Shown here: piece by piece, positions 946-39,700 of the stretch
Layout: every line of letters starts with the position of its first letter
How positions within the stretch are numbered: position 1 is the stretch's first letter
Source: a phage
Sequence record: NC_107013.1
Strand: one strand, 5' to 3'
Length of the DNA stretch: 41,265 nt
Program-made: the position numbers and the translations under genes
The notes under the pieces: generated by a model
Databases searched by the model: none
What the model was told of the DNA's origin: nothing
Seen by the model: only the letters and a program-made list of their open reading frames with translations

Positions 946-967
946 ATCTGTTTTCTGTAATGGCTAG

Positions 968-996
968 TTGACTATTACCTTAGACCCTATTATATT
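968..996 (+). promoter_or_regulatory. Sigma70-like promoter (TTGACT-N17-TATATT)
   Basis: -35 and -10 hexamers with 17-bp spacer, upstream of the small-ORF cluster. Confidence 0.45.
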
Positions 997-6014: not shown

Positions 6015-6036
6015 AGCCCCGAAAGGGGCTTTCTTA
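6015..6036 (+). terminator. Internal hairpin terminator/attenuator between portal and head morphogenesis genes
   Basis: AGCCCC-GAAA-GGGGCT then TTCTT; same hairpin as at 7584-7604. Confidence 0.45.
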
Positions 6037-6073
6037 TAGTATGCTATTAACTTTAGCGCCACAGGGTTTATCT

Positions 6074-7604: not shown

Positions 7605-7667
7605 GTGCCTGTGATTATTCCAGTTATTCCACTCAATTGTAAATGTTGGAATAAACTATTCGAATAG

Positions 7668-7696
7668 TTGACTTTTCACCAAAAATGTGCTAAGCT
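7668..7696 (+). promoter_or_regulatory. Sigma70-like promoter TTGACT-N17-TAAGCT (TG-extended -10), copy 1; overlapped upstream by the 16-bp palindrome AACTATTCGAATAGTT
   Basis: Same -35, -10 and spacer length as the promoter at 38053-38081. Confidence 0.55.
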
Positions 7697-14466: not shown

Positions 14467-14951
14467 TATTTATCACTCCCATGTGGTTTTAAGTGTGTAG
14501 AGTTCCCGTTACAGTCGTATTCAGTAACTGCGTGAGTGGTTATGCCGAGTTCGCGGAAATGCTTTATTACCGCTGGAGAGTCGTCGAATGCACACAAGAT
14601 TCTCTCCGGCCCAATAGCACGCAACACCTCTTCTTTAATTACGATGTCTTTTCTGTTGTCGTGTTTGCTGCGCATGATTAACTGATAAAATTCGACGCGG
14701 TGGCGCTGCAACCACATTCTGGTTTCTTTTTCCGCGTCATCACTACGGCCTGTTAAGATAATAACGGCATAGCGACGATTAAGGGCGTTACACAGTTCGA
14801 TGTTATCTTTAATGGGTGCATCGTCTTTGCACGCCATGTTAAATGGTTTCCACGCCCAGGTTTCGCCGTAGTTATCTTTCGGCAGCAGGTGTAAACGATG
14901 AGTACCATCTGCCAATGTCCCGTCTAAATCGAAAATCACAATATCTTTCAT
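14466..14951 (-). CDS. HAD-superfamily phosphatase
   Basis: N-terminal FDLDGTL motif; further HAD-like Asp motifs. Confidence 0.65.
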   Translation of the reverse strand: MKDIVIFDLDGTLADGTHRLHLLPKDNYGETWAWKPFNMACKDDAPIKDNIELCNALNRRYAVIILTGRSDDAEKETRMWLQRHRVEFYQLIMRSKHDNRKDIVIKEEVLRAIGPERILCAFDDSPAVIKHFRELGITTHAVTEYDCNGNSTHLKPHGSDK

Positions 14952-16115: not shown

Positions 16116-16307
16116 TCACTTCTCTTTGACATTCGAGTTGCACGCCCAGATTAAGATAAATACCCACGGCAGCAGAACCCAACCAAGAAACAGATTAGCC
16201 ATGAATATCGCTAACTTCGCTTTATGGTTACGGAAGTACGCAACCAGGAAAGGCGCGAAATAAGCGAGCAGTGCAAACAGAATTAAGGAAACTGGTAAAC
16301 TGGACAT
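16116..16307 (-). CDS. Superinfection-immunity (Imm-like) small membrane protein
   Basis: Two TM segments with YF...N-LFLGW...LIWA pattern; AAGGGG RBS before internal ATG (16307). Confidence 0.55.
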   Translation of the reverse strand: MSSLPVSLILFALLAYFAPFLVAYFRNHKAKLAIFMANLFLGWVLLPWVFILIWACNSNVKEK

Positions 16308-16337
16308 TTTAAACCCCTTCATTGTTGGTGTAAGTGA

Positions 16338-16366
16338 ATAGTACCCTATTATATTGGGGTGTGCAA
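16338..16366 (-). promoter_or_regulatory. Class II promoter TTGCAC-N17-TACTAT with conserved spacer, upstream of the Imm-like gene
   Basis: 33-bp near-identity to the plus-strand promoter at 38351-38383. Confidence 0.5.
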
Positions 16367-26621: not shown

Positions 26622-28042
26622 TTCTTACCTCTTCTCTTCATATAATTAAGCAATTCTTCCTGGACCGATTTCTTCTCGTCTGTACGCGCGGCAACAACCT
26701 CGTCAAGAGTGTCTTTAGCGACTATGTGATAAAGGAACACCGGGCGCTCGTGGCCAGCCTGTTTCTGGCGGACCGGGCCTATACGCTCGACAACCTGCAA
26801 ATAGTGCTCAAGATTCCAGCCTTGCGAAATAAACGCCAGATGATGTCCGCCGTCCTGTAAATTCAAACCATGGCCGGCTGACGCGGGGTGCACGCATAGG
26901 ATTTCGATTTCGCCACGGTTCCACGCTTCCATCTGCTTATTGCCCTTCGCGCCTTTTGCAAAAGCCTGCGCCTGCGGGAAGCGCTTGAGGATGCGCTCCA
27001 GTTCGTGCTTGAACTGATAGGCGACTAGTAACGGCGCACCCTGCAACTCCTCGGCAATGGACTCCAGCGCGTCCAGTTTCGTGTCGTGTACTTTCTCCCA
27101 GTCTTTGGTTGCTTCGCCGTCTGGCCCCGATACATATACGGCACCGGACGCAATTTGCAAGCACTTCGACGTCTTCGCCGCAGCGTTAGCAGCTTCCACT
27201 TCCCCGCTCTCAAGTTCCGCGAATAACTTCTCCTCCATATCGATGTACGCCTGACGTGCTTTCTTCGGCAGGTCGATTTCAACCGTAACAATAATCGGCG
27301 CTTCACACCCGAACCACTCAGCGGCGTCAATAGTGAGGCTGATGTCCTTCATCTTCTGGTGAATTTCATTATCCGCGCCAGGACGGGCGTGGTATTCGCG
27401 CGCCATCGCCGACTTTCCTTTCTGTACCGAGTTAAACCAGCGGTCGGTGAATGCCGTGTACGACGACCCCAGGCGCTCACCCGCGTCGATAAACCAGTTC
27501 TGACCCCACAAGTCTTTGAGGCCGTTTGGCGAGGGCGTGCCGGTAAGGTTTATAAAACGCTTAACCTTTCCAAACGCCACCTTACTGAGCGCCTTTGCCC
27601 GCTTGCTACCACCCGAACGGCTGCGGAATGATTTCAGCTTCGTGCTCTCATCGGCAACGATAACCGTAAAAGGCCAGTCATCTTTGCCGTAGTAGTCGAT
27701 CAGCCACTCGATAACTTCGTAGTTCGTGCACACCACGTTAGCATCTGACTCCAGCGCCGCGATGCGGCGCTTCTCTGAACCTGTCGCGTCTACGACACGC
27801 AGACATGGGAAATTCCATTTCTCTTGCTCTGCCGGCCATGTGCCGGACGCAACACGTAAAGGAGCCAGAATTAACACCCGGTCGCCATCATTAAGTTGGC
27901 CGTTGCGGAACAGTCGGTTTAAGACCCACAGTACGCTGCCAGTCTTCCCGGCACCCATACTCGCCCAAATATTACAGCGATGGTGTTGCAACATGAACGA
28001 GGTCATGAGCTTCTGGTACTCGCGCCTTTGAAACTTACTCAT
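26618..28042 (-). CDS. SNF2/DEAD-like superfamily 2 helicase
   Basis: Walker A SMGAGKTGS; DExx box VIVADEST; helicase C-terminal motifs. Confidence 0.8.
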   Translation of the reverse strand: MSKFQRREYQKLMTSFMLQHHRCNIWASMGAGKTGSVLWVLNRLFRNGQLNDGDRVLILAPLRVASGTWPAEQEKWNFPCLRVVDATGSEKRRIAALESDANVVCTNYEVIEWLIDYYGKDDWPFTVIVADESTKLKSFRSRSGGSKRAKALSKVAFGKVKRFINLTGTPSPNGLKDLWGQNWFIDAGERLGSSYTAFTDRWFNSVQKGKSAMAREYHARPGADNEIHQKMKDISLTIDAAEWFGCEAPIIVTVEIDLPKKARQAYIDMEEKLFAELESGEVEAANAAAKTSKCLQIASGAVYVSGPDGEATKDWEKVHDTKLDALESIAEELQGAPLLVAYQFKHELERILKRFPQAQAFAKGAKGNKQMEAWNRGEIEILCVHPASAGHGLNLQDGGHHLAFISQGWNLEHYLQVVERIGPVRQKQAGHERPVFLYHIVAKDTLDEVVAARTDEKKSVQEELLNYMKRRGKK

Positions 28043-28859
28043 TTATGGTCCCCATAAACGCCTTTATAAATTCGGCGGCTACTTGCGGGACGATGGCATT
28101 GCCGTAACCGCGCAATCGTCCCACTCTTGCGGGTATCCCATTAGCCAGCGGGAATGCGCCGGGTTCAACCGGCCGGAACTTTCCATCACGGCATCCGAGC
28201 CAGTCAGCATCTGACCAGAAGCCGTGGTGCGGGTTGGTTGACTCGCTTTCAATCCCTGCTCTGTTGAGTAGTCCAGCCTGTCGAATGTTCTGTCCCTCCC
28301 GTCCGTGCGAATCACTGTCTCTCCGCTCCCTCTGAAGTCGTTCGCTGTCGGTGTAGGCCAGTTCGTGCGCGCCAAAGAAGAGTCGTTCTCTTTTGTGCGG
28401 TGCGCCGACGCTACAAGCTGGGAGTACAGCAAACCCGACGGCGTAGTCTTCTCCTTCCAGGTGAGCTTGTAAATCGCACATCCACGATTTTGCAATTGCT
28501 GCTGCAACCTGCTCCCCAAAGATGACCGGAGGGCGGCACTCGCTGATGATGTCGAGGAAGACCGGCGCGAGGTGTCTCGGGTCGAACTGTCCGAGTTGTT
28601 TTCCTGCCGTGCTAAACGGTTGGCAAGGCGGGCTTCCCGTCCAGAGAGGCGTATCCTCCGAAACTCCCGCAAGTCTGAGCGCGAGAGGCCAGCCGCCGAT
28701 ACCAGCGAAAAAATGACACTGGGTGAACCCGTCAAGGTCTTCTGGCTTAACTTCGGTAATGCTTCTTTCATCTACAACTCCAAAAGGTATGTGACCATGT
28801 TTTATTAATTCACGCAGCCACGCGGCTGCGCCTTTATCCCATTCGTTGTAATAGTTCAT
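28035..28859 (-). CDS. DNA (cytosine-5)-methyltransferase
   Basis: Motif I FFAGIGG, motif IV PPCQPFS; other C5-MTase blocks. Confidence 0.8.
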
Positions 28860-29047
28860 TTCGCCACCAGCACCAGCTCTTTACGCCCGAACGCCGTAAC
28901 GTTACCCGTTACATCTTCGATAACCAGTTTACCGTTCGACTCGACGAACACCGTATCAACGGCAACAGGTTGACGTGTCTTAACGTTGAAAATCATGTCA
29001 CCCGGTACGATGTCACGTGCTGGTTTGCGGTCATATTCGTGTTTCAT
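28856..29047 (-). CDS. Hypothetical protein (63 aa)
   Basis: AAGGA RBS; ATGA coupling to the methyltransferase. Confidence 0.5.
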   Translation of the reverse strand: MKHEYDRKPARDIVPGDMIFNVKTRQPVAVDTVFVESNGKLVIEDVTGNVTAFGRKELVLVAK

Positions 29048-29077: not shown

Positions 29078-29362
29078 CTAACTATAATAGCTAGCTATTA
29101 GGTCGTCAACCTGTTTAAACGAACCAACGACAAAAACATTTGCACCGCGTTTACGCATACGCTCATGCTCTCGTAACTGGTGCGGGTCAGGCTTCGTGTT
29201 TTCGTCTTTCTTAACCTCGATAAACCAGACGATGCCGCCGGGGAGAATTACCAGTAGGTCTGGAGCGCCGGAACGCCCCTCATAAGACAGTTTACGAACG
29301 AGGCCGCCAATGGCCTCGAATCGCTCTTTCGCGTATTTCTGAATCTTGCCTTCCGGGGTCAT
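29078..29362 (-). CDS. VRR-NUC domain nuclease (PD-(D/E)xK)
   Basis: Motif PDLLVI...IEVK; ATG at 29362. Confidence 0.6.
   Translation of the reverse strand: MTPEGKIQKYAKERFEAIGGLVRKLSYEGRSGAPDLLVILPGGIVWFIEVKKDENTKPDPHQLREHERMRKRGANVFVVGSFKQVDDLIASYYS
29081..29109 (-). promoter_or_regulatory. Class I early promoter TTGACG-N17-TATAGT with palindromic operator AATAGCTAGCTATT in the spacer
   Basis: About 20-bp shared core with promoters at 32635-32663 and 34772-34801. Confidence 0.5.
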
Positions 29363-29511
29363 GAACGCAGAACCCAAGTTATAAACGCTCCGCCGAGAAT
29401 GGCAACGCCAACAAACTTAAGGAGCAGGCTGTAGCAGAACATCGCAACTATTCCCGCACCGAGTAACAGTGTGAGCATGGTTACTATCGTCCAAAATACA
29501 AACATTGTCAT
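29359..29511 (-). CDS. Hypothetical small membrane protein (50 aa)
   Basis: Hydrophobic ORF with ATGA coupling to VRR-NUC start. Confidence 0.3.
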   Translation of the reverse strand: MTMFVFWTIVTMLTLLLGAGIVAMFCYSLLLKFVGVAILGGAFITWVLRS

Positions 29512-29714
29512 AACACGCACCCCTCCCGTTTTGTATGCTCAATACCGCAGCGCGGGCAGATTCGGCAGTCTTCTTCATAGAACCAGTAAATTTTCATTCC
29601 AGCACCCACAGATAAATTGCGACTAACATACACAATACGGCGACCATCATGCCGTATTGCCCCTCATGACAGTAGACACCCGCGGCGAATCCCGCCAGTA
29701 CCGCGATAATCAGT

Positions 29715-31895
29715 TTACTTAGCATAACGCTTCATCTCCGCACCTTCTGCTACAAGAGGGAACCCCTCAGCCCATTCCGGTAATTCGCACATCAACCGCT
29801 CAAGCTCTGCAACATTGTATTCTGGTAAATCTGGTGTCTCGCAGATAATCTCATCGTGTACGTGAAGCACAATCGGATAGCCGTTTGCTTCTACGTTAAG
29901 CAGCGCATTAGCCAACAAATCACGGCACAGCGCCTGAGTGCAGTTTTCCACGAGTTTACCGGAATATGTGTACTGGAAGCCCCACTGCCGTGTTAACTGG
30001 TTTTCGCCCTGGTACTTGATGCGGACGTTAGTGGACACCTTCCCGTCTTCGTCTGTCTCTTTCGACACGCTTAGCCCAACACCCGGATAAGACATAACGC
30101 GGCCCGACGGCAACGTCATCCGCAACCACCAACCGGCGACTTTGTTGCCGTTGTTGTCCGTTTCTACGTTGCGCGAAAACTTAACTCCCCGCGGCCCTGC
30201 GGTGAACTCTTTGCCTGGATTGCGGATAGCTGCCATAGCTGCGTCTTCAATATCCCGCCAGAAAGCTACTGTTTCCGGGTGTGACTCACGCCACATACGC
30301 TTGATAGCGTCGCAGGTACGCCACACTTTCTTATCAAGAATATAAGATGGTCGGTCATCATTTTCACCTGGACGTGGTGGTCGCTTGGCTTCCTGAATAC
30401 GCGCCCACTCATATCCACGTGCGGTAGCAGCCCAGATGTGGTCGGGGAAAGTCCCGTCCATTGTTTTTGTCATATCAACAAGGTCAAGGCCGAGGTTCTT
30501 GGCGAACTGTACGAATGCGCCGACACCACCCGCGTAGCCAAGTCCAAGTTCGCATGCCTTACCAATCTGGCGTAAGTCTTTACGTTCTTTCTTAATGTAA
30601 TCCGGCTCCATGCCGAACATCTTGCCTGCGGTTACGCAGTAAATATCCAGCCCGGCACGGAACGTATCAAGCGCGGTTTCTTCGCCAGCCAGCCACGCCA
30701 AACCCCGGCCTTCAACGTTCGAGTAGTCGGCGACGACAAACTTATGTCCGGCTTCCGGGATAATGCAGCTGCGAACCGTAGATGCCGTTAGCTTGGCTAC
30801 ATCAAAACGGCGATGTGCTCGGCCCTTAAGTAATGCTGAAATACCTTTATCCAGTTCATCATCGTGATAGTACCCACGCGCCAGGTTCTGCGGCTGGAAG
30901 CCTTTACCCGCAAATCGTAACGTACGTTTAGCTCCACCATACTGGATGCAACCGCGACGGCGGTCGTCAGACGAGCGGCCTAACAGCAGCGGGTTATATT
31001 TCGTTGACGCAGTGGATGCCGCCCCGAGGCGCATTTCTATAATCGTGCGGGCGTCGTCCGGTAAATCATCGTCAGCAAGCAGGTCGTTAAGCGTAGACTT
31101 CTGCGCGTTGTGGATGCGATGCGCAGGCGCCAGTTCACGCAGAATCGGCAGGAAGTCCTTACCTGTAAGCGAGCCGCCGTATTTACGTTGGGCTTCTTCC
31201 TGTAACTGTGCCTTGTGTTTCTCCACAGCTTCAATTGCGGCTTCCGCCAGCGCAACGTCGACCTTAAACCCGCGGTCGTTAATTAACTGGTCCAGTTCCA
31301 GTACACGGTCTTCGAACTCGGAGTTACCCCAACGCGGCAACTTATGGAACACTTCACGCATCGCGGTGATGTCGCTAACGGCGTACTTGATGAACAGCGC
31401 CCACTCATCCGGGTGCGTTTCAGCAGTGTAGCGGCGAATTTTGTAGTTCTTCGGCGTCGGTTTAGAGAAACGCTGAATAAGCGCTTTGCCTCGTTTGTCT
31501 TTCGCGTTGTCTGCAGACACGCCAAGCACTTCGCACAATGCGTCGAGTGAACCCGGCAGCGCGTGACGAAACGCCCAAATCATCGTATCAATGGTGTTGC
31601 TTACGGGAATATCAAAACCCCAGCAGTGCTTCATGATGAGTCTGTCGAACATTGAGCCGTTGTGCCACACCATCTTAATACGGCTGTTTGGTTTCACCAG
31701 ACGGCGTAACGCGCGGTGCAAATCACCCGGCATGTCGCTGCCGTTGGTGCAATCCCATACCTGCACAGGCTCGTCGTCAAAAGCATATGTGCAGATTAGA
31801 ACTTCGGTGGTTGGATGTTCGGCGTAAGCGTAGGAGCCGACTTTCTTCAAATCGGCTTCGGAGAATGTTTCAAAGTCTAAGAACAGGTAACTCAT
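29715..31895 (-). CDS. DNA polymerase, family A, with 3'-5' exonuclease domain
   Basis: N-terminal DFETFS (Exo I); C-terminal VHDEI (motif C). Confidence 0.85.
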   Translation of the reverse strand: MSYLFLDFETFSEADLKKVGSYAYAEHPTTEVLICTYAFDDEPVQVWDCTNGSDMPGDLHRALRRLVKPNSRIKMVWHNGSMFDRLIMKHCWGFDIPVSNTIDTMIWAFRHALPGSLDALCEVLGVSADNAKDKRGKALIQRFSKPTPKNYKIRRYTAETHPDEWALFIKYAVSDITAMREVFHKLPRWGNSEFEDRVLELDQLINDRGFKVDVALAEAAIEAVEKHKAQLQEEAQRKYGGSLTGKDFLPILRELAPAHRIHNAQKSTLNDLLADDDLPDDARTIIEMRLGAASTASTKYNPLLLGRSSDDRRRGCIQYGGAKRTLRFAGKGFQPQNLARGYYHDDELDKGISALLKGRAHRRFDVAKLTASTVRSCIIPEAGHKFVVADYSNVEGRGLAWLAGEETALDTFRAGLDIYCVTAGKMFGMEPDYIKKERKDLRQIGKACELGLGYAGGVGAFVQFAKNLGLDLVDMTKTMDGTFPDHIWAATARGYEWARIQEAKRPPRPGENDDRPSYILDKKVWRTCDAIKRMWRESHPETVAFWRDIEDAAMAAIRNPGKEFTAGPRGVKFSRNVETDNNGNKVAGWWLRMTLPSGRVMSYPGVGLSVSKETDEDGKVSTNVRIKYQGENQLTRQWGFQYTYSGKLVENCTQALCRDLLANALLNVEANGYPIVLHVHDEIICETPDLPEYNVAELERLMCELPEWAEGFPLVAEGAEMKRYAK

Positions 31896-31897
31896 TA

Positions 31898-31928
31898 TTT
31901 TTGACCCTTAGTAAAAAGGCCCAATGAA
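31898..31928 (-). terminator. Terminator on minus strand between the DUF2815-like gene and the polymerase gene
   Basis: AGGCCC-TTCATT-GGGCCT hairpin followed by TTTTT on the minus strand. Confidence 0.5.
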
Positions 31929-31954
31929 GGGCCTTAGTTAAATTGATTCAGATA

Positions 31955-32581
31955 TTAGCGACGACGACGCTCGCGGCGCGGTGCTTCATCTTCTTCGTCG
32001 TCTTCCAGGTCATTTACGCTGGCAGCGACTTTAGAACCGCCAAACGCTTTGCCTTCGCCAATGTATTTAATCGCCAGCAGGTTAACGCCGAGGACTTTAT
32101 ATTTCTGACTGAACCAGATTTCAACGCTTACGTTAGCGACGCAGCCGCTGTAAACCTGTTCACCTTCAATCTGTTCGCCGTCTACATTGAAGTCCTGTTC
32201 TACCTGAGTCTCGCCTTTTTTAGAGGTTACAATCAGTGGCTGTTTCTGTGCCTTCGCCTTGAAGTAGAAGCCTTCCGGGAAGTCTTCAAACGGATTGTCG
32301 CGCTCGGCAATGTCTTTAATCGCACATTTATCCATGTGCTTACCTTCGCCGTAGTTGGACTTCATCCACTTCTCAGCGGCAGCTGCGCCCAACGCTTCTT
32401 CAACCACAGCGTAAACGGTGTCGTAGAGCGCGTCGATTTGTGCGTGGTCAGACGGCAGGATGATAGTCGCGCTGTACTGGCCTTTAGTGATTGAGCCATC
32501 ATCGTTTTCACGGTCTTTTTCGCGTTCGAATACGTTAACCCATGCAGTGTTTACTTTACGCAGATTCAGTTTAATACCCAT
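31955..32581 (-). CDS. DUF2815-like protein (putative ssDNA-binding); acidic C-terminus
   Basis: Paired with DUF2800-like gene upstream; C-terminal DDEEDE. Confidence 0.45.
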   Translation of the reverse strand: MGIKLNLRKVNTAWVNVFEREKDRENDDGSITKGQYSATIILPSDHAQIDALYDTVYAVVEEALGAAAAEKWMKSNYGEGKHMDKCAIKDIAERDNPFEDFPEGFYFKAKAQKQPLIVTSKKGETQVEQDFNVDGEQIEGEQVYSGCVANVSVEIWFSQKYKVLGVNLLAIKYIGEGKAFGGSKVAASVNDLEDDEEDEAPRRERRRR

Positions 32582-32634
32582 CGTGATTTCTCGCTTTTCA
32601 GTTTACTCCGGGAACTGCCCGGCCAGTGATTAGA

Positions 32635-32663
32635 ACTATAATAGCTAACTATTCAGGTGTCAA
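32635..32663 (-). promoter_or_regulatory. Class I early promoter TTGACA-N17-TATAGT with AATAG-N4-CTATT operator
   Basis: Core AACTATAATAGCTAACTATT identical to 34772-34791. Confidence 0.5.
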
Positions 32664-32667
32664 CACT

Positions 32668-33918
32668 TTATTCCGAATCTTCTTCACTAACCTGATTCCA
32701 CTCAGGACGTTTGTCGTCTGCCGTTGCGACACATGGTGCGCCTGGCTTACGGGTAATAAACGGCTCAAGCGCTGCCATCTCATCCGCCGAAAGAACTTTT
32801 GCTGCCTCCGTAGGGGTCATCAATACCTCTTTTTTGAGAATGTCGCCGTGTGACACTTCAATCGCATCGGCATCTTTCCACGCACGATTACCCTGGCGGC
32901 CTTCTACCAGTTTGTACCCTGGCACTTTCTTACCGGAATGCAATGCGGCGGACATCGCTTTCTCAACCTTGTCGATGTGCTGGCGCAACAGCGGCAACTT
33001 CTCATACTCAACTACGAGTTGCTCCGTCGTCAGTTCCAGCACAAAGTCGTCTTCAAGTTCTTCCGCCAGTACAGAATTAACCGTCTTTGTACGCGCGGCA
33101 CACTGTTCAGAGAACCGGCACCACTGGCAACCATCTACTGACGGCTTAAAGTCTGACGCTTTCAGGTTCTTCTTACCGCGGAAATATGCATCAAGTGCTA
33201 ACAGTGCTCGTTTTTGTGCGAACTTAGCGAACAGTTCCAGGCCTTCAACCGAGATATCCCACTCCGACGCACCCCCAGCGTACGGCTGGAAGATGACCAG
33301 ACGAACAGTTGTTATGTTATAACGTCTCTTGAGTCGGCGATAGACACCGAGCGCGTAAAGCATAAGCTGCTTGTTTTCTTTCGCTTCGACGCGATGCCGT
33401 CCTGTTTTCAGGTCACCAATAATGAGCATGTGCTCGTCGGTGTTTGCCAGTTCCTGTACGGCAACAAGGTCAGCAGTTCCGAACGTTTCAACGCCTTCGT
33501 AGCCTGGGTGCAACACCTCAGTAAGATTGACGCGCATTTCCAGCTTAGCGTAAGTCGCTACATCAATAATCGCTTTGCAGTAGTCGGTGTACTTGCGCAC
33601 CTGCTCAATCATGTCCGCCGTAATCAGTACCGCGCCTTTCATCGGGCTGATTAGCGCCTTAATCTGGCCTTTACCCTCATCCAGCACATAAGCGCCAACT
33701 TCACGCTCTAATGGCAGAGCAGTGCCTTTGATGTACTGGTTAAGGTGCATCTCCGCTATGGTGTGGCATGCAGTCCCTGTAACGGCGGCTTTACCAGACG
33801 TGTTGGGAATATCTTTCTCACAGGCCAGTGACGCACTGCACGCCAGCCACTTTTTAGCGCCAGACGGCGACAGTAAGGCGTGCACATCGTTATTGCCGCC
33901 GCGTTCCTTTAAAATCAT
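32668..33918 (-). CDS. DUF2800-like PD-(D/E)xK (Cas4/RecB-like) nuclease
   Basis: N-terminal LLSPSGAKKW...C motif; C-terminal Cys cluster; GGAG RBS before ATG 33918. Confidence 0.55.
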   Translation of the reverse strand: MILKERGGNNDVHALLSPSGAKKWLACSASLACEKDIPNTSGKAAVTGTACHTIAEMHLNQYIKGTALPLEREVGAYVLDEGKGQIKALISPMKGAVLITADMIEQVRKYTDYCKAIIDVATYAKLEMRVNLTEVLHPGYEGVETFGTADLVAVQELANTDEHMLIIGDLKTGRHRVEAKENKQLMLYALGVYRRLKRRYNITTVRLVIFQPYAGGASEWDISVEGLELFAKFAQKRALLALDAYFRGKKNLKASDFKPSVDGCQWCRFSEQCAARTKTVNSVLAEELEDDFVLELTTEQLVVEYEKLPLLRQHIDKVEKAMSAALHSGKKVPGYKLVEGRQGNRAWKDADAIEVSHGDILKKEVLMTPTEAAKVLSADEMAALEPFITRKPGAPCVATADDKRPEWNQVSEEDSE

Positions 33919-34187
33919 ACCCTGCTCTCCCACTGGTCAATTAAATGTCGTGTCTTATGGTCGCAGTGCATAGCCCAGCCATACATCGACTCGAAGACGT
34001 AAAAGTCCGGTTTGGCGAAAGTCGTGCGCTTAATATGTGACACGTGGCGGCCTATGTCTTTAGGCCGTGGCACTTTGCCTAAGTACGCCATATCTTCCAT
34101 CTGGTGCGAGCCAGACGGCGCACGTAACAGCCATAGCGCCTCTGTGCTATCCCGCCTGTCTACGGCGCGGTAGAGTTGGTAAATCAT
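33915..34187 (-). CDS. Hypothetical protein (90 aa)
   Basis: ATGA coupling with the downstream gene. Confidence 0.45.
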   Translation of the reverse strand: MIYQLYRAVDRRDSTEALWLLRAPSGSHQMEDMAYLGKVPRPKDIGRHVSHIKRTTFAKPDFYVFESMYGWAMHCDHKTRHLIDQWESRV

Positions 34188-34202
34188 AATTCCGACCCTC
34201 AG

Positions 34203-34230
34203 TTAAAGCGGCCCGAAGGCCGCGGGATAG
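34203..34230 (-). terminator. Terminator on minus strand
   Basis: GCGGCC-TTCG-GGCCGC hairpin then T-rich tail on the minus strand. Confidence 0.45.
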
Positions 34231-34740
34231 TTATTCTTCTTCGAAATACTTGTTCTTGATTGCTGTCAGGCGCTCCAGATACTCAGCCAGGTCTTCGTCT
34301 TTAATCGCTGCAATCTTCATCTTCTTACCGGTAAACTCTTCCAGCAGTTCGTCAGAATCGTCGCACGCGGCATCGCTTGGGCCTTCGTTAATCGCATCGT
34401 CGATAGCCTGAATCTGGTCGCGCAGAGACTGGTAATCGACTTCTTCTTTCTCTTCTTCCGGCTCTGGCGTTGGTTCCTCTACTTTGTCCTTACGCGGCTT
34501 GCGCTTCGGCTTCTCTTCTTCTGCGGGTTTAGTGTCAACGGTGTCTTCACCTTCTACCGGGATTTCTTTCCCGACGCCAGTGCCTGGGTCGACTTCAAGT
34601 ACCTCTCCCGTAGCCGACACGTCTACAAGCATTTCACCTGCGCGCTCAGCCGGCGGCACCTGTCGTTTCACACTATTTGCGGCAATCAGTTCATGTGCAA
34701 CTACGAAACGTTCCAGTAATTTTAAAAATTGGTCTAACAT
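34231..34740 (-). CDS. Hypothetical acidic protein (first gene of an early transcript)
   Basis: 169-aa Glu/Asp-rich ORF directly downstream of a class I promoter. Confidence 0.5.
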   Translation of the reverse strand: MLDQFLKLLERFVVAHELIAANSVKRQVPPAERAGEMLVDVSATGEVLEVDPGTGVGKEIPVEGEDTVDTKPAEEEKPKRKPRKDKVEEPTPEPEEEKEEVDYQSLRDQIQAIDDAINEGPSDAACDDSDELLEEFTGKKMKIAAIKDEDLAEYLERLTAIKNKYFEEE

Positions 34741-34771
34741 TTGTTTCTCTCCTCTCGTTTGGTATATGCTA

Positions 34772-34801
34772 ACTATAATAGCTAACTATTCATGTTGTCA
34801 A
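34772..34801 (-). promoter_or_regulatory. Class I early promoter with AATAG-N4-CTATT operator (18-bp spacer variant)
   Basis: Core AACTATAATAGCTAACTATT identical to 32636-32655. Confidence 0.5.
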
Positions 34802-34805
34802 TGGG

Positions 34806-34834
34806 CTTTTCTAAAATAATTAATATGGTACTAT
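34806..34834 (+). promoter_or_regulatory. Extended -10 promoter (TGgTACTAT) for the XRE-family gene, divergent from the class I promoter
   Basis: TG-extended -10 with weak -35, upstream of 34866. Confidence 0.35.
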
Positions 34835-34865
34835 TCACATATCAACTGACTAAGGAGTAATTGGC

Positions 34866-35081
34866 ATGCAACCATCTGAACTAGGTATCCGTGTAGAGCA
34901 ACGCCGTAAAGAACTCGGTATCTCCCAGCGCCATCTGGCTGTCCTGGCCGGTGTTTCCCAAGGCGCGATTAACCAGCTGGCACTTGGGGTAACTCAGGAC
35001 GTCCGCCCAGCGACGCTGTTTAAACTGGCGGAAGTGCTGCAAGTAGACGCCAAGTGGCTGGCGTTGGGTGAAGGGGCTTAA
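34866..35081 (+). CDS. XRE-family (Cro/CI-like) HTH transcriptional regulator
   Basis: LGISQRHLAVLAGVSQGAINQL helix-turn-helix; AAGGAG RBS; own terminator. Confidence 0.7.
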   Translation: MQPSELGIRVEQRRKELGISQRHLAVLAGVSQGAINQLALGVTQDVRPATLFKLAEVLQVDAKWLALGEGA

Positions 35082-35098: not shown

Positions 35099-37360
35099 CT
35101 ATTCCAAATCCTCCTCTGTCACTGTCAGCATTTCATTCGGTTCGTATATTGTCTTAGGAATTTTGTTGTCGTTTATACCCCACGGCAACCTGTATTGCTT
35201 AGGGATGGGCCTGTTGTTGTTATCCAGCCCAGAGACGATAACCCCCGCCTCGTGCATCTCTTCCAGTTTCTTTCGAAGGTCGTTATTAGCGTTAATCGGT
35301 ACGCCGTAACTATCTTCTTTCGCCGCTTTGACGATAGCTGACATAGAGAACCCTCGCTTGTCGTCGCCTTGCTCCTGCAATTTACCTAATGCGTAAATAA
35401 CCGTAGCCTCTTTGGAATCCAGTTTCTCGAACTGGCCTACCTTTTCTTTAACGGCTTCCTTCTGTTCGTCAGTCATACCTTCTACTTTCTTCACAAAGAC
35501 AGAGAAGGCGTTGAAGTTGACAAAGACATCAATATGCGGATTTCCCGCGTCAAAATCGCGCACATCATCACTGCTATACCCTTCCGGAAGCCCCATGAAG
35601 TTGTGAGTTGGTTCTTTCTTTTCCGGCGGCTCCGCTATCTGAATCTTCTGTATTACGAATCCTCTGGCTTTCTGCCGTTCTCCATTTCGGTTCTTTATGT
35701 GATACAGGTTTATCTCTAAGTTATTGTCGTTGTCTGGTTTATGCAGGAACATCCCGTTATCGATGGAGTTGTGAAAATCACTTCCACCCTTCGGCATCAT
35801 GCCGTTTTCAGACGGCACAGTTTCGTCGATGTTTTTAGTCGGGTGCACCATAGCGCCTACCGCAGCGTTAAGCGTCGACGCTATTTCGTTAAGCGCCTGC
35901 GCCGCTTCTTTCATAGACCGGTTGTCGTTCTCGTCGAAGCCCGGTATGCAAGTTTGTAGAGTATCAAACGTAACCTTTACAATTTTCTCTTCACCGGCGA
36001 CACGGCGCATCATTCTCACCGCCTGGCGGCGCCATGCTTCATCAAGTAAATTACACCCATCCGCAACACAATCGATAATGTGCAAGCGGTCGAGGCTATC
36101 GCCAAGTGCAATCTGCAAAGATTTTTTATGTCTCTCGAACGACTGCGCACCTTCGCCCGCGAAGATAAATGCATGACCTTCTGCGACCTCAGCACCACCG
36201 AACGCATATCTTTTTTCGGCGGCGATAGCAGCGTCAATCGCCATACTAAATGTTGACTTACCAGTGTGGGACTTTGCGCAAATGTAGAACGATTCGTTGG
36301 TCTGCATAAGGCCGTCTACTACGGGGTAAGCAGGTTCTTTTTCTACTTCCGGCTCGTCTTCGAGGTCTTCAAGCGTACAAGTTACAGGCTCCTCGTTCTC
36401 TGTGCGGTGCAGTTCTTCAATCTCTTCGTCCGGTAAGTCAGGCAAAGCCGCACGAATGCTGTTAATACTGATAGGTTGCTTGTCTATGTTAAGCTCGTCG
36501 GGCAGGCCGCACATACGCAAGGCCAAATGTTGCCGACGGTTAAGCTCGGTACAAGCGCCGTTGTTTGTGTGCTGGCACACGAAGCGCACCTCTTTACCGT
36601 CAAGCATGATGCTGGTGGAGCCTTTGCCTGTATGCAGATGTTCGTTCGGACATGGTACTTCGTACCCACGACCTGACGACAGCGCATCAAGACCCAACTC
36701 CGCTTCGCAAAAATACGCTATGTCGGCATTCAGCCCACGCTCATCGGCGGCAAGTGTCTTAGCTTCACGTTTACGCAGACCCATCTCTTCGGCTTTCTTG
36801 ATGTACCGCTCAGCACGGATAACACGCCCTTCTGTGACCGTTATCTTCGACTCTTTATGGGGAAGGTAGATAAGACGGTTGCCGTCTTCCGTGCAGTGGT
36901 CGCGCAATGCTTCGTCTATTTCCAACTCTGCGCAAATAGCACGTTGTACCATCCACGCATCGTTAGAGTTGAACGGAGTGCGGGCCGGAACCAGAACGCG
37001 GAATGCGTAATCGCCGTTTTTACACGCATGCTGATGCGACGCCGTTGTGTGCAGGATATTGAAGAACGGCGCGTTCTTGAATTTGCGTGTCAGGTCGCGG
37101 TACTGAGTACGGTTGAGATGGTCGAAGTCGAACTTAACCACACTGTCTTCCAGAATAGCGTTTTTACGGCGACCGCCAACAGGTGCGATAGCCTTCTGCT
37201 TAATCTTGGCAGCGTCGTACTCTTCCTTAGTCCACGACGGGTCTACGGATAAACGCTTCGATGTATCGCACACAAACTCGACAAACTGTTCCAGCGGCAT
37301 CTCACGAGCCACAGGATTTTTATCGAATGTGTTACGCAGCGTTGCAAAAACAATATTCAT
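35099..37360 (-). CDS. Bifunctional primase-polymerase / helicase
   Basis: N-terminal FDFDHL acidic motif; Cys/His zinc-binding segment; Walker A SHTGKST. Confidence 0.75.
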   Translation of the reverse strand: MNIVFATLRNTFDKNPVAREMPLEQFVEFVCDTSKRLSVDPSWTKEEYDAAKIKQKAIAPVGGRRKNAILEDSVVKFDFDHLNRTQYRDLTRKFKNAPFFNILHTTASHQHACKNGDYAFRVLVPARTPFNSNDAWMVQRAICAELEIDEALRDHCTEDGNRLIYLPHKESKITVTEGRVIRAERYIKKAEEMGLRKREAKTLAADERGLNADIAYFCEAELGLDALSSGRGYEVPCPNEHLHTGKGSTSIMLDGKEVRFVCQHTNNGACTELNRRQHLALRMCGLPDELNIDKQPISINSIRAALPDLPDEEIEELHRTENEEPVTCTLEDLEDEPEVEKEPAYPVVDGLMQTNESFYICAKSHTGKSTFSMAIDAAIAAEKRYAFGGAEVAEGHAFIFAGEGAQSFERHKKSLQIALGDSLDRLHIIDCVADGCNLLDEAWRRQAVRMMRRVAGEEKIVKVTFDTLQTCIPGFDENDNRSMKEAAQALNEIASTLNAAVGAMVHPTKNIDETVPSENGMMPKGGSDFHNSIDNGMFLHKPDNDNNLEINLYHIKNRNGERQKARGFVIQKIQIAEPPEKKEPTHNFMGLPEGYSSDDVRDFDAGNPHIDVFVNFNAFSVFVKKVEGMTDEQKEAVKEKVGQFEKLDSKEATVIYALGKLQEQGDDKRGFSMSAIVKAAKEDSYGVPINANNDLRKKLEEMHEAGVIVSGLDNNNRPIPKQYRLPWGINDNKIPKTIYEPNEMLTVTEEDLE

Positions 37361-37553: not shown

Positions 37554-37766
37554 TTATTTACAACCAGAAAACCACGCGCGCTCGGAATCATAGAAACGGC
37601 ATTTACTTAACACATCTACTGGCATCTTAATAATGCGCGTCGGTTCCGACAAATGGTTAGGCTTACATATTTCTGCATAGAATCCGCTGTCAGTAATTTC
37701 TGACGCAAACTTAAACCAGTATTTAACTTTACCGTTTTCAAAGTAACAACCCATACGCCCAATCAT
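37554..37766 (-). CDS. Hypothetical protein (70 aa)
   Basis: ATGA coupling to the upstream HTH gene. Confidence 0.45.
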   Translation of the reverse strand: MIGRMGCYFENGKVKYWFKFASEITDSGFYAEICKPNHLSEPTRIIKMPVDVLSKCRFYDSERAWFSGCK

Positions 37767-37945
37767 TTCACGTTCTCCTTAATCCACTCTTCAACTTTAT
37801 TACGGTCAAATGTTCCAGGCAAACGGCGGCCCATAACCTTAATACAACAATCCGGGAATTTACCACTGCGCAACCAGTTATTAATTGTCTGACGTGTCAC
37901 CCCGATACGCTCGGCTACTTCATTCTGGGTCATGTAATGTTGCAT
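37763..37945 (-). CDS. Small HTH DNA-binding protein (first gene of the leftward early operon)
   Basis: AGGAGA RBS before ATG 37945; motif EVAERIGVTRQTINNW. Confidence 0.6.
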   Translation of the reverse strand: MQHYMTQNEVAERIGVTRQTINNWLRSGKFPDCCIKVMGRRLPGTFDRNKVEEWIKENVK

Positions 37946-37976: not shown

Positions 37977-38005
37977 AGTATAGGATAGCGGGAATGTAAA
38001 AGCAA
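37977..38005 (-). promoter_or_regulatory. Sigma70-like promoter TTGCTT-N17-TATACT for the leftward early operon
   Basis: Hexamers and 17-bp spacer on the minus strand, divergent from 38053-38081. Confidence 0.45.
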
Positions 38006-38350: not shown

Positions 38351-38379
38351 TTGCACGCCCCAACATAATAGGATACTAT
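38351..38379 (+). promoter_or_regulatory. Class II promoter TTGCAC-N17-TACTAT with conserved spacer
   Basis: 33-bp near-identity with minus-strand promoter at 16338-16366. Confidence 0.5.
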
Positions 38380-38413
38380 TCACTTATCGAAACGAGACAG
38401 AGGAGTGAGGGTT

Positions 38414-38802: not shown

Positions 38803-38981
38803 TGCGAATCCGTATAACTGACCGCAGGCTTGTCCGTATAACTGACCGCAGGCTTATAGATTTCGGTATCTCGGTAGGTGATGTTTTTCCGGCGTTCAGC
38901 ATCAACCATTATGGTTTTATGATTGAGTACAAAGGGTCGTTATTGTTCGTGTATCGGGATGAATGTGAGGTTCTGGTATGA
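38802..38981 (+). CDS. Hypothetical protein containing an in-frame 8-aa duplication (RITDRRLV / RITDRRLI)
   Basis: TAATG coupling; ORF spans the 24-bp tandem repeat. Confidence 0.4.
   Translation: MRIRITDRRLVRITDRRLIDFGISVGDVFPAFSINHYGFMIEYKGSLLFVYRDECEVLV
38809..38856 (+). repeat. Tandem direct repeat, 2 x 24 bp (TCCGTATAACTGACCGCAGGCTT[G/A])
   Basis: Two adjacent copies differing at one position. Confidence 0.85.
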
Positions 38982-39641: not shown

Positions 39642-39670
39642 TTGCACACTAAGATAGAATAAGCTACTAT
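39642..39670 (+). promoter_or_regulatory. Promoter TTGCAC-N17-TACTAT (class II-like hexamers, divergent spacer)
   Basis: Hexamers and spacing. Confidence 0.4.
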
Positions 39671-39700
39671 TCATTTACACAAGCGAGAGGAGAGACAGAG

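Follow-up and report, generated by a model that had tools for sequence, protein, structure and literature searches.

The phage genome recorded as NC_107013.1 carries on its minus strand three promoters whose sequences agree well beyond the -35 and -10 hexamers, and the question raised by this locus is what, besides RNA polymerase, such promoters might bind. We considered this question over the whole stretch of 41,265 nucleotides, called the window below, starting from an initial annotation in which the shared sequence had been proposed as an operator and a Cro-like protein of the XRE family (here XRE), encoded on the plus strand beside one of the promoters, as its repressor. According to our analysis the shared element, AATAG-N4-CTATT, is most likely an operator of 14 bp to which a dimeric helix-turn-helix repressor encoded by the phage would bind. 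The operator idea is well supported by the sequence patterns described below, and XRE, a protein of 71 amino acids (aa), is the best available candidate for the repressor that would bind it, with a probability of roughly 0.5.

By nucleotide identity the genome is a Kagunavirus (K1G/K1H-like) of the subfamily Guernseyvirinae: the 8-kb stretch around the three promoters is 96.6% identical to Escherichia phage vB_EcoS_fKuEco01 (fKuEco01) and 96.5% identical to phage K1H, and several hundred Salmonella Jerseyvirus genomes match the same stretch more weakly. These relatives are virulent siphophages with genomes of about 41-45 kb. All three promoters fall in a minus-strand replication module with genes for a helicase-primase, a 169-aa open reading frame (ORF), an exonuclease, a single-stranded DNA (ssDNA)-binding protein of the DUF2815/Enc34 type, DNA polymerase, a VRR-NUC nuclease, methyltransferases and a helicase.

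A palindrome inside the promoters

The three minus-strand promoters, of the form TTGAC(A/G)-17/18-TATAGT, have their hexamers where the initial annotation had placed them (PA1, PA2 and PA3, our class A; Table 1), and are the top three matches to the sigma-70 consensus in a scanned region of 15 kb. The shared 20-bp core, which reads AACTATAATAGCTA(A/G)CTATT on the plus strand, could also be confirmed, at 29080-29099, 32634-32653 and 34771-34790; it occurs exactly three times, even when three mismatches are allowed, and was not found once in 100 dinucleotide-preserving shuffles. The first copy had been described as holding a perfect palindrome of 12 bp, and the palindrome is indeed perfect but longer, a 16-mer (TAATAGCTAGCTATTA at 29085-29100). 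Two other parts of that description have to be given up, namely that the whole 20-mer is the conserved unit and that it is restricted to three sites. The conserved unit is instead the 14-bp palindrome AATAG-N4-CTATT, of which the window contains five perfect copies and four copies with one mismatch, against 1.1 expected by chance, and a further copy with two mismatches at 963-976. In a de novo count of all inverted repeats of 5-mers, this palindrome ranks first in the genome.

Eight of the ten copies, including all five perfect ones, lie within promoter-like sequences just upstream of genes, the exceptions being the copy at 6035, where no promoter is convincing, and the one ahead of the XRE gene, with a -10 only. 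The promoters show three layouts. Class A reads TTGACA-N4/5-AATAG-N4-CTAT/TATAGT, with the palindrome at -25 to -12; class B reads TTGCAC-N10-AATAG-N3-TACTAT-T, with the palindrome at -19 to -6; and in class C the -35 hexamer TTGACT is central in the 14-mer, which places the palindrome at about -40 to -27. Of the promoter-like sequences examined, only that of the operon for the primase and a small protein of the HTH_17 family (TTGCTT-17-TATACT, 37977-38005) is clearly without the palindrome. Each class A site also contains a perfect TATAAT on the plus strand; a plus-strand promoter starting from it was rejected, as there is no usable -35 or TG extension upstream and two of the three such promoters would point antisense into genes.

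Part of this set of sites has been reported before under another name. A PHIRE analysis of phage fBC-Eco01 gave the motif tgAATAGTa-ccTATTat-T at seven sites, in corresponding genome positions, and the authors listed these as promoters of a phage RNA polymerase (PMC9825357); the account of phage Golestan gives seven PHIRE 'promoters' as a count (PMC7203180). The passages on promoters in these two papers propose neither an operator nor a regulator (PMC9825357, PMC7203180), and the class A sigma-70 promoters were missed in fBC-Eco01 except for one listed as PP4 (PMC9825357). Whereas these papers take the element to be recognised by a phage polymerase, we take it to be an operator placed inside host sigma-70 promoters. 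That the motif serves a polymerase of the phage is scarcely credible: most of the sites lie within a good sigma-70 -35/-10 pair with a spacing of 17-18 bp, and no RNA polymerase gene is found among the annotated genes of K1H, fKuEco01 and the Salmonella phage SE2 (a Jerseyvirus), so that transcription in these annotated relatives must rely on the host enzyme and the published label is very probably wrong.

Conservation of the element in related phages

A motif search in related phages, suggested with the initial annotation as a check, finds AATAG-N4-CTATT across both Kagunavirus and Jerseyvirus. For Kagunavirus we used 37 loci from IMG/VR, and all three class A sites are present at orthologous positions wherever a locus extends that far. 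The Kagunavirus loci, 679 kb in total, contain 167 perfect sites and the Jerseyvirus loci, 262 kb in total, contain 40, with 0.2 expected in either set; the loci from Cornellvirus, which amount to 145 kb, contain none. In a scan of a viral collection for AATAG-N4-CTATTATAGT, the identifiable contigs with more than one match were, among the matches listed, all Kagunavirus or Jerseyvirus, and the single matches elsewhere in the collection look like chance. Two more distant phages with XRE homologues, Smarc3 and VLCpiS11a, have no repeated AT-rich palindrome with perfect 5-mer arms.

Within the sites, AATAG and CTATT are fixed and the central four bases vary among genomes (CTAA, CGAA, TTCG, CTCG, TGAA and others). 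Over the unique orthologous sequences of five sites, departures from the majority base are found in 3 of 1340 cells of the half-sites and in 50 of 536 cells of the centre, counts which must be read with the reservation, unfavourable to an operator, that, among relatives as close as those compared, the cells do not represent independent events; over a span of a few bp the contrast is large. A variation of 4-22% is seen in the flanks, both in the stretch that separates operator and -35 and immediately past the -10. In the position frequencies of 125 Kagunavirus and 45 Jerseyvirus unique sites, a single base accounts for 80-100% at the positions of the arms and for no more than 74% at those of the centre. 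In SE2 the orthologues of PA2 and PA3 carry an identical 14-mer, AATAGAGTACGATT, in opposite orientations relative to transcription. One Kagunavirus locus, L004, has at 14662-14675 an extra perfect site (AATAGGTTACTATT) without counterpart in the window, which suggests that sites are gained and lost together with accessory genes.

The same alignments bear on the idea that no dedicated regulator exists, and that the motif is a promoter design of this lineage, or a trace of descent by promoter duplication, kept because host RNA polymerase initiates well on it. In classes A and B the right half-site does overlap or abut the -10 hexamer, the motif is rich in A and T and -10-like, orthologous Cornellvirus promoters have similar AT-rich spacers without a strict palindrome, and intergenic regions as a whole show high conservation in this set of close relatives. 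Sigma-70, however, is not known to make base-specific contacts in the promoter spacer, and the left half-site AATAG, which lies in the spacer, is as invariant as the hexamers. A design of this kind also fits poorly with three registers and both orientations of the element, or with the freely varying central 4 bp and -35-adjacent bases in the very same alignments, and it leaves the symmetry itself unexplained. We consider this explanation unlikely. What is conserved is a discrete element, independent of the -35 and -10, with invariant half-sites found in three registers and both orientations, and with a dyad symmetry of conserved arms around a non-conserved centre. This combination fits the binding site of a symmetric dimer and not an element intrinsic to the promoter, and the pattern bears out the suggestion that identity beyond the hexamers marks a separate, symmetric protein-binding site laid over the core promoter. 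Several Cornellvirus promoters have another palindrome, TATTA(G)-N4-(C)TAATA, which is less strict.

XRE as the candidate repressor

XRE had been called Cro-like, and it is a genuine HTH_3 protein and a homologue of phage 434 Cro. It matches the Pfam family HTH_3 (PF01381) with 45.2 bits (cut-off 23; E=9.7e-12) over profile positions 2-55 of 55, 434 Cro with E=1.8e-6 (both proteins have 71 aa) and the DNA-binding domain of P22 c2 with an E-value of about 3e-3, and it is 42% identical to DicA of Rac. An AlphaFold 2 (AF2) model, with a mean predicted local distance difference test score (pLDDT) of 78.8, has helices at residues 5-17, 21-28, 32-39, 48-57 and 62-66, that is, the five-helix fold with helix 2-turn-helix 3. 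Its best Foldseek matches in the PDB are the 434 repressor DNA-binding domain and 434 Cro, at 41% identity, and SinR and P22 c2, with TM-scores of 0.72-0.79 for these matches, and controller proteins of restriction-modification (R-M) systems are also among the nearest structures.

The position of the gene agrees with such a role. As had been pointed out, it is back-to-back with PA3, and a site with one mismatch covers the gene's own -10; this site, at 34822-34835, is invariant in 36 unique relatives, and a weaker site over the gene's own -10 is the usual arrangement of self-regulating proteins of the Cro/CI type. No Kagunavirus variant, even at an overall identity of 75%, shows a change in helix 2-3 of XRE (GVSQGAINQLALGVT). 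Every genome that bears the motif has XRE, including the two that lack HTH_17 (L004 and L018, see below). In Cornellvirus XRE is only about 40% identical and AATAG-N4-CTATT is absent, a case that hints weakly at a co-divergence of protein and operator.

Several observations weigh against XRE. Its recognition helix is SQGAINQ in Kagunavirus and SQSLITH in Jerseyvirus, yet the operator core is the same in both, and the Jerseyvirus helix is closer to TQSAISH of Cornellvirus, a genus without the motif. Between Kagunavirus and Jerseyvirus XRE is 49% identical, against 74-96% for the neighbouring genes, which looks like an allele replacement that left the operator unchanged. Finally, the -35 of the presumed XRE promoter is very poor. 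A search of 5.8 billion proteins for XRE homologues in unrelated contexts gave only Kagunavirus-type proteins of at least 74% identity, and a search for relatives without XRE, using loci anchored on the DUF2815 gene, recovered the same contigs.

The gene next to XRE, for the helicase-primase (35099-37360), is only 26-32% identical to its counterparts in L004, L082 and SE2, and the flanking genes are 75-98% identical; this divergence points to the segment XRE-primase-HTH_17 as a hotspot of mosaic gene replacement.

HTH_17 and host proteins as alternative binders

The palindrome could be an operator and yet be bound by another protein, the 60-aa HTH_17 protein encoded at 37763-37945. At the level of genera its distribution matches that of the motif, since it is present in Kagunavirus and Jerseyvirus (about 80% identity) and absent from Cornellvirus, and its recognition helices are alike in the first two (TRQTINNW and TRRTLNNW). 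Its own promoter is without the operator both in the window and in SE2. In the transcriptome of the Kagunavirus vB_Eco_K1B4, the sole annotated gene among the four early ones encodes a helix-turn-helix protein (gene 008; PMC12645636), which by gene order is probably HTH_17. Within Kagunavirus, however, the correspondence is lost. L004 and L018 have replaced the HTH_17 gene by unrelated ORFs and have kept all operators perfectly; between the operators of these two loci, 3 of 28 positions differ in the centre and 0 of 70 in the half-sites (Fisher p about 0.02). K1H and the locus L025 carry an HTH_17 variant with a very different recognition helix, SPMTLNRW, and their operators are unchanged. Proteins of the HTH_17 family usually bind as monomers or to direct repeats, and no dimerisation element is obvious in these 60 aa. 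Moreover, an early-made repressor of replication promoters would make little regulatory sense. We regard HTH_17 as a rather unlikely binder of the element, and on the evidence for both proteins, that is, the features of XRE and the loss of HTH_17 with the operators kept, XRE is preferred, with the reservations given above.

A phyletic profile of all ORFs of the window (present in motif-bearing genomes, absent from Cornellvirus) retained only HTH_17 and a 63-aa ORF (28856-29047), and neither is clean: HTH_17 is missing in L004 and L018, and the 63-aa ORF has a 43% match in the motif-less Smarc3.

In L004 (12559-13144) and L018 (3624-4209) two ORFs, one of 149 aa and a Cys-rich one of 47 aa, take the place of HTH_17. 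The former has no PHROG match, and could, by eye, contain winged-helix domains; for the latter only an HNH endonuclease family was matched, and weakly.

We also considered that the element might be a loading site for an antiterminator like Q or AlpA. In Pseudomonas aeruginosa AlpA, residues 128-142 contact DNA, a ring is formed from the N-terminal segment, and the element recognised, GGGACG, is asymmetric (PMC9371919). The HTH_17 protein matches only the helix-turn-helix part of AlpA/Q-type proteins, without the ring at the RNA exit channel, and with no candidate protein having a ring domain, and with the AlpA element being asymmetric, this reading was rejected.

Phages from two host genera share the motif, and the recognition helices of their own candidate regulators are not the same, which might be taken to mean that a DNA-binding protein of the host (E. 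coli or Salmonella) binds the palindrome and so couples the phage promoters to host physiology. The commonest variants, ACTAG and CTAGT, shift the site towards the trp-operator core, ACTAGTTAACTAGT. TrpR, however, needs C at position 2, where A is the consensus in 82-98% of the sites, and Cornellvirus, which also infects Salmonella, is without the motif. We know of no E. coli regulator with the consensus AATAG-N4-CTATT, and a host protein appears quite improbable as the binder.

Promoters and sites across the window

The features discussed here are collected in Table 1.

Table 1. Promoters, operator-like sites and candidate regulator genes in the window.
Feature	Position	Strand	Promoter elements and palindrome	Downstream genes or setting
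PA1 (class A)	29081..29109	-	-35 TTGACG 29104-29109, 17-bp spacer, -10 TATAGT 29081-29086	63-aa ORF 28856-29047, methyltransferase and helicase genes
PA1 operator (predicted)	29086-29099		AATAGCTAGCTATT, covers -25 to -12	
PA2 (class A)	32635..32663	-	-35 TTGACA 32658-32663, 17-bp spacer, -10 TATAGT 32635-32640	DUF2815/Enc34-type ssDNA-binding protein gene (31955-32581), DNA polymerase gene
PA2 operator (predicted)	32640-32653		AATAGCTAACTATT	
PA3 (class A)	34772..34801	-	-35 TTGACA 34796-34801, 18-bp spacer, -10 TATAGT 34772-34777	169-aa ORF 34231-34740, 90-aa ORF, exonuclease gene
PA3 operator (predicted)	34777-34790		AATAGCTAACTATT	
XRE-promoter site (class B register)	34822..34835	+	One-mismatch AATATGGTACTATT over -10 TACTAT 34829-34834; presumed -35 CTTTTC 34806-34811, poor	45 bp from the PA3 operator
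XRE gene	34866..35081	+		71 aa, HTH_3 domain; best repressor candidate
Class B promoter	16337..16366	-	TTGCAC (16361-16366)-17-TACTAT (16338-16343); perfect AATAGGGTACTATT at 16337-16350	68-aa ORF 16116-16322, phosphoesterase, polynucleotide kinase and nucleotide kinase genes
Class B promoter	38351..38380	+	TTGCAC-17-TACTAT; perfect AATAGGATACTATT at 38367-38380	Small plus-strand ORFs from about 38405
Class B promoter	39642..39671	+	TTGCAC-17-TACTAT; one-mismatch AATAAGCTACTATT at 39658-39671, perfect form AATAGGCTACTATT in relatives	ORFs from 39701, leading into lysis genes
Class C promoter	963..996	+	TTGACT (968-973)-17-TATATT (991-996); -35 inside operator-like GCTAGTTGACTATT at 963-976, two mismatches in the window, one in K1H and SE2	Small ORFs, NinH and terminase genes
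Class C promoter	7663..7696	+	TTGACT (7668-7673)-17-TAAGCT (7691-7696); -35 inside one-mismatch AATAGTTGACTTTT at 7663-7676	Spanin, scaffold and capsid genes; HP1 of the fBC-Eco01 paper (PMC9825357)
Copy without convincing promoter	6035..6048		One-mismatch TATAGTATGCTATT	Just past the terminator after the portal gene
HTH_17 gene	37763..37945	-	Own promoter TTGCTT-17-TATACT 37977-38005, operator-free	60 aa, excisionase/MerR-like

The copy at 6035-6048 may be the remnant of a minus-strand insert, which in some relatives bears a class B promoter. Directly upstream of the class C site at 7663-7676, and overlapping it, there is a perfect 16-bp palindrome (AACTATTCGAATAGTT, 7654-7669) in which the same half-sites are everted (CTATT-CG-AATAG), and some relatives have a class B promoter nearby; this could represent a second binding mode or a recombination scar.

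Many of these promoters are followed by 5' leaders (in the window at 34741-34770, 38381-38404, 39672-39700 and 997-1029) that carry a purine-rich block of the type (A)AACGAGA(G/C)AGAGGAG just before the start codon. The block is also found in leaders of SE2 (L039) and VSiA (L040) and is kept even in the operator-less Cornellvirus; a role as an extended ribosome-binding site or as an enhancer of translation is possible. Among the small plus-strand ORFs, a 23-bp unit (TCCGTATAACTGACCGCAGGCTT) is exactly duplicated in tandem at 38809-38855, with a spacing of 24 bp. In the methyltransferase region two long minus-strand ORFs overlap (28035-28859 and 28079-28771), and K1H and fKuEco01 annotate both as DNA methyltransferases. 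The 63-aa ORF, the first after PA1 (PHROG 4879), reaches 96% identity between Kagunavirus and Jerseyvirus, well in excess of the average for its neighbourhood, and is absent from Cornellvirus.

A model of repression by occlusion

In the mechanism that we propose, each monomer of the repressor would read one 5-bp half-site and the central 4 bp would not be read directly. The operator would lie across the core of about nine promoters of the host sigma-70 type, and would do so in three registers: that of the spacer at the three promoters of the replication module, that of the -10 at three promoters of operons for small genes and nucleotide metabolism and at the presumed promoter of the XRE gene, and that of the -35 at the two promoters that precede the genes for packaging and for structural proteins. 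RNA polymerase would be excluded by a bound dimer at all three positions, and this expected exclusion is what marks the element as a probable repressor site. Relative to the consensus-type hexamers, as predicted from the sequence, the site positions would fit the interval from about -40 to +10; none of them suits a class I or class II activator, and with spacers of 17-18 bp there is no reason to invoke a mechanism of the MerR type.

The replication and accessory operons have perfect sites and the XRE and virion promoters imperfect ones, which suggests a repression graded with the accumulation of the protein. XRE, transcribed divergently from PA3, would accumulate and shut the promoters with perfect sites first, and those with imperfect sites (its own and the two of the structural genes) would be repressed only weakly. 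What the analysis shows is the sites with their enrichment, registers and pattern of selection, and for XRE its homology and fold; the binding of a protein, its identity as XRE, the repressing effect and the graded timing we infer. As a wider and more tentative proposal, on the doubtful side in our view, a single Cro-like protein might time gene expression in a strictly virulent siphophage that lacks both an RNA polymerase and a sigma factor of its own, its rising concentration switching expression from replication to virion genes through graded operators.

The transcriptome of vB_Eco_K1B4, taken over 120 minutes from an unsynchronised culture, is compatible with this model and too coarse to serve as a test of it (PMC12645636). 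A gene for 'specific DNA binding' next to the primase, by gene order XRE, is found there among the middle genes (PMC12645636). One point of this data set, coarse and unsynchronised as it is, tells against the model: the DNA polymerase and methylase genes are among those that peak late (PMC12645636), so that no obvious shut-off of PA1 and PA2 is suggested.

Significance for annotation and use

Phages of Kagunavirus and Jerseyvirus are widely isolated and have been put forward as agents of therapy and biocontrol directed at E. coli K1 and Salmonella; we found no experimental work on transcription control in Guernseyvirinae in the literature. If the operator reading is true, it corrects the label "phage RNA polymerase promoters", which recurs in genome papers, and gives a simple regulatory map in which one or two candidate proteins face about ten operators. 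The compact pair of repressor and operator, together with the strong sigma-70 promoters, would in that case also be reusable as a genetic part. The value of the analysis lies in annotation and in a testable model, and not in a new principle.

Comparison with known systems

The closest known system is that of phage 434, the operators of which are 14-bp palindromes with a 5+4+5 layout, where the outer bases are conserved and the centre, which is not contacted, tunes affinity. Like 434 Cro and repressor, XRE has the five-helix HTH_3 fold and, at 71 aa, detectable homology; like OR1-3 and OL1-3, the predicted operator is a 14-bp palindrome that keeps its outer bases and varies in the centre, where contacts are presumably lacking; and, as in 434, the operators overlap promoters and the candidate regulator gene, with a site at its own promoter, is divergent from one that it would regulate. 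The match in geometry is known here from the sequence, and the binding of an XRE dimer is predicted. By contrast, the half-site is AATAG and not ACAA(G/T), the phage is strictly virulent, without CI partner, integrase or immunity region, and, instead of the tandem triplets of a single switch, it has single sites at about ten dispersed locations in three registers.

The half-site layout xxxAG-N4-CTxxx is shared with the operators of P22 c2 and Cro (core TTAAG-N4-CTTAA) and with DicA. The P22 operators, however, are 18 bp long and clustered, and XRE lacks the C-terminal oligomerisation domain of P22 c2. The controller proteins of R-M systems (C.AhdI, C.BclI) are likewise small HTH_3 dimers of similar fold that bind palindromic boxes overlapping promoters and regulate their own gene, but they serve one or two promoters of a single operon and activate at low concentration, whereas the phage has about ten dispersed sites, all in positions expected to repress. 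The proposed arrangement is that of an ordinary repressor and operator of the Cro/434 type, unusual only in its dispersal, in three registers, over about nine promoters of a virulent phage.

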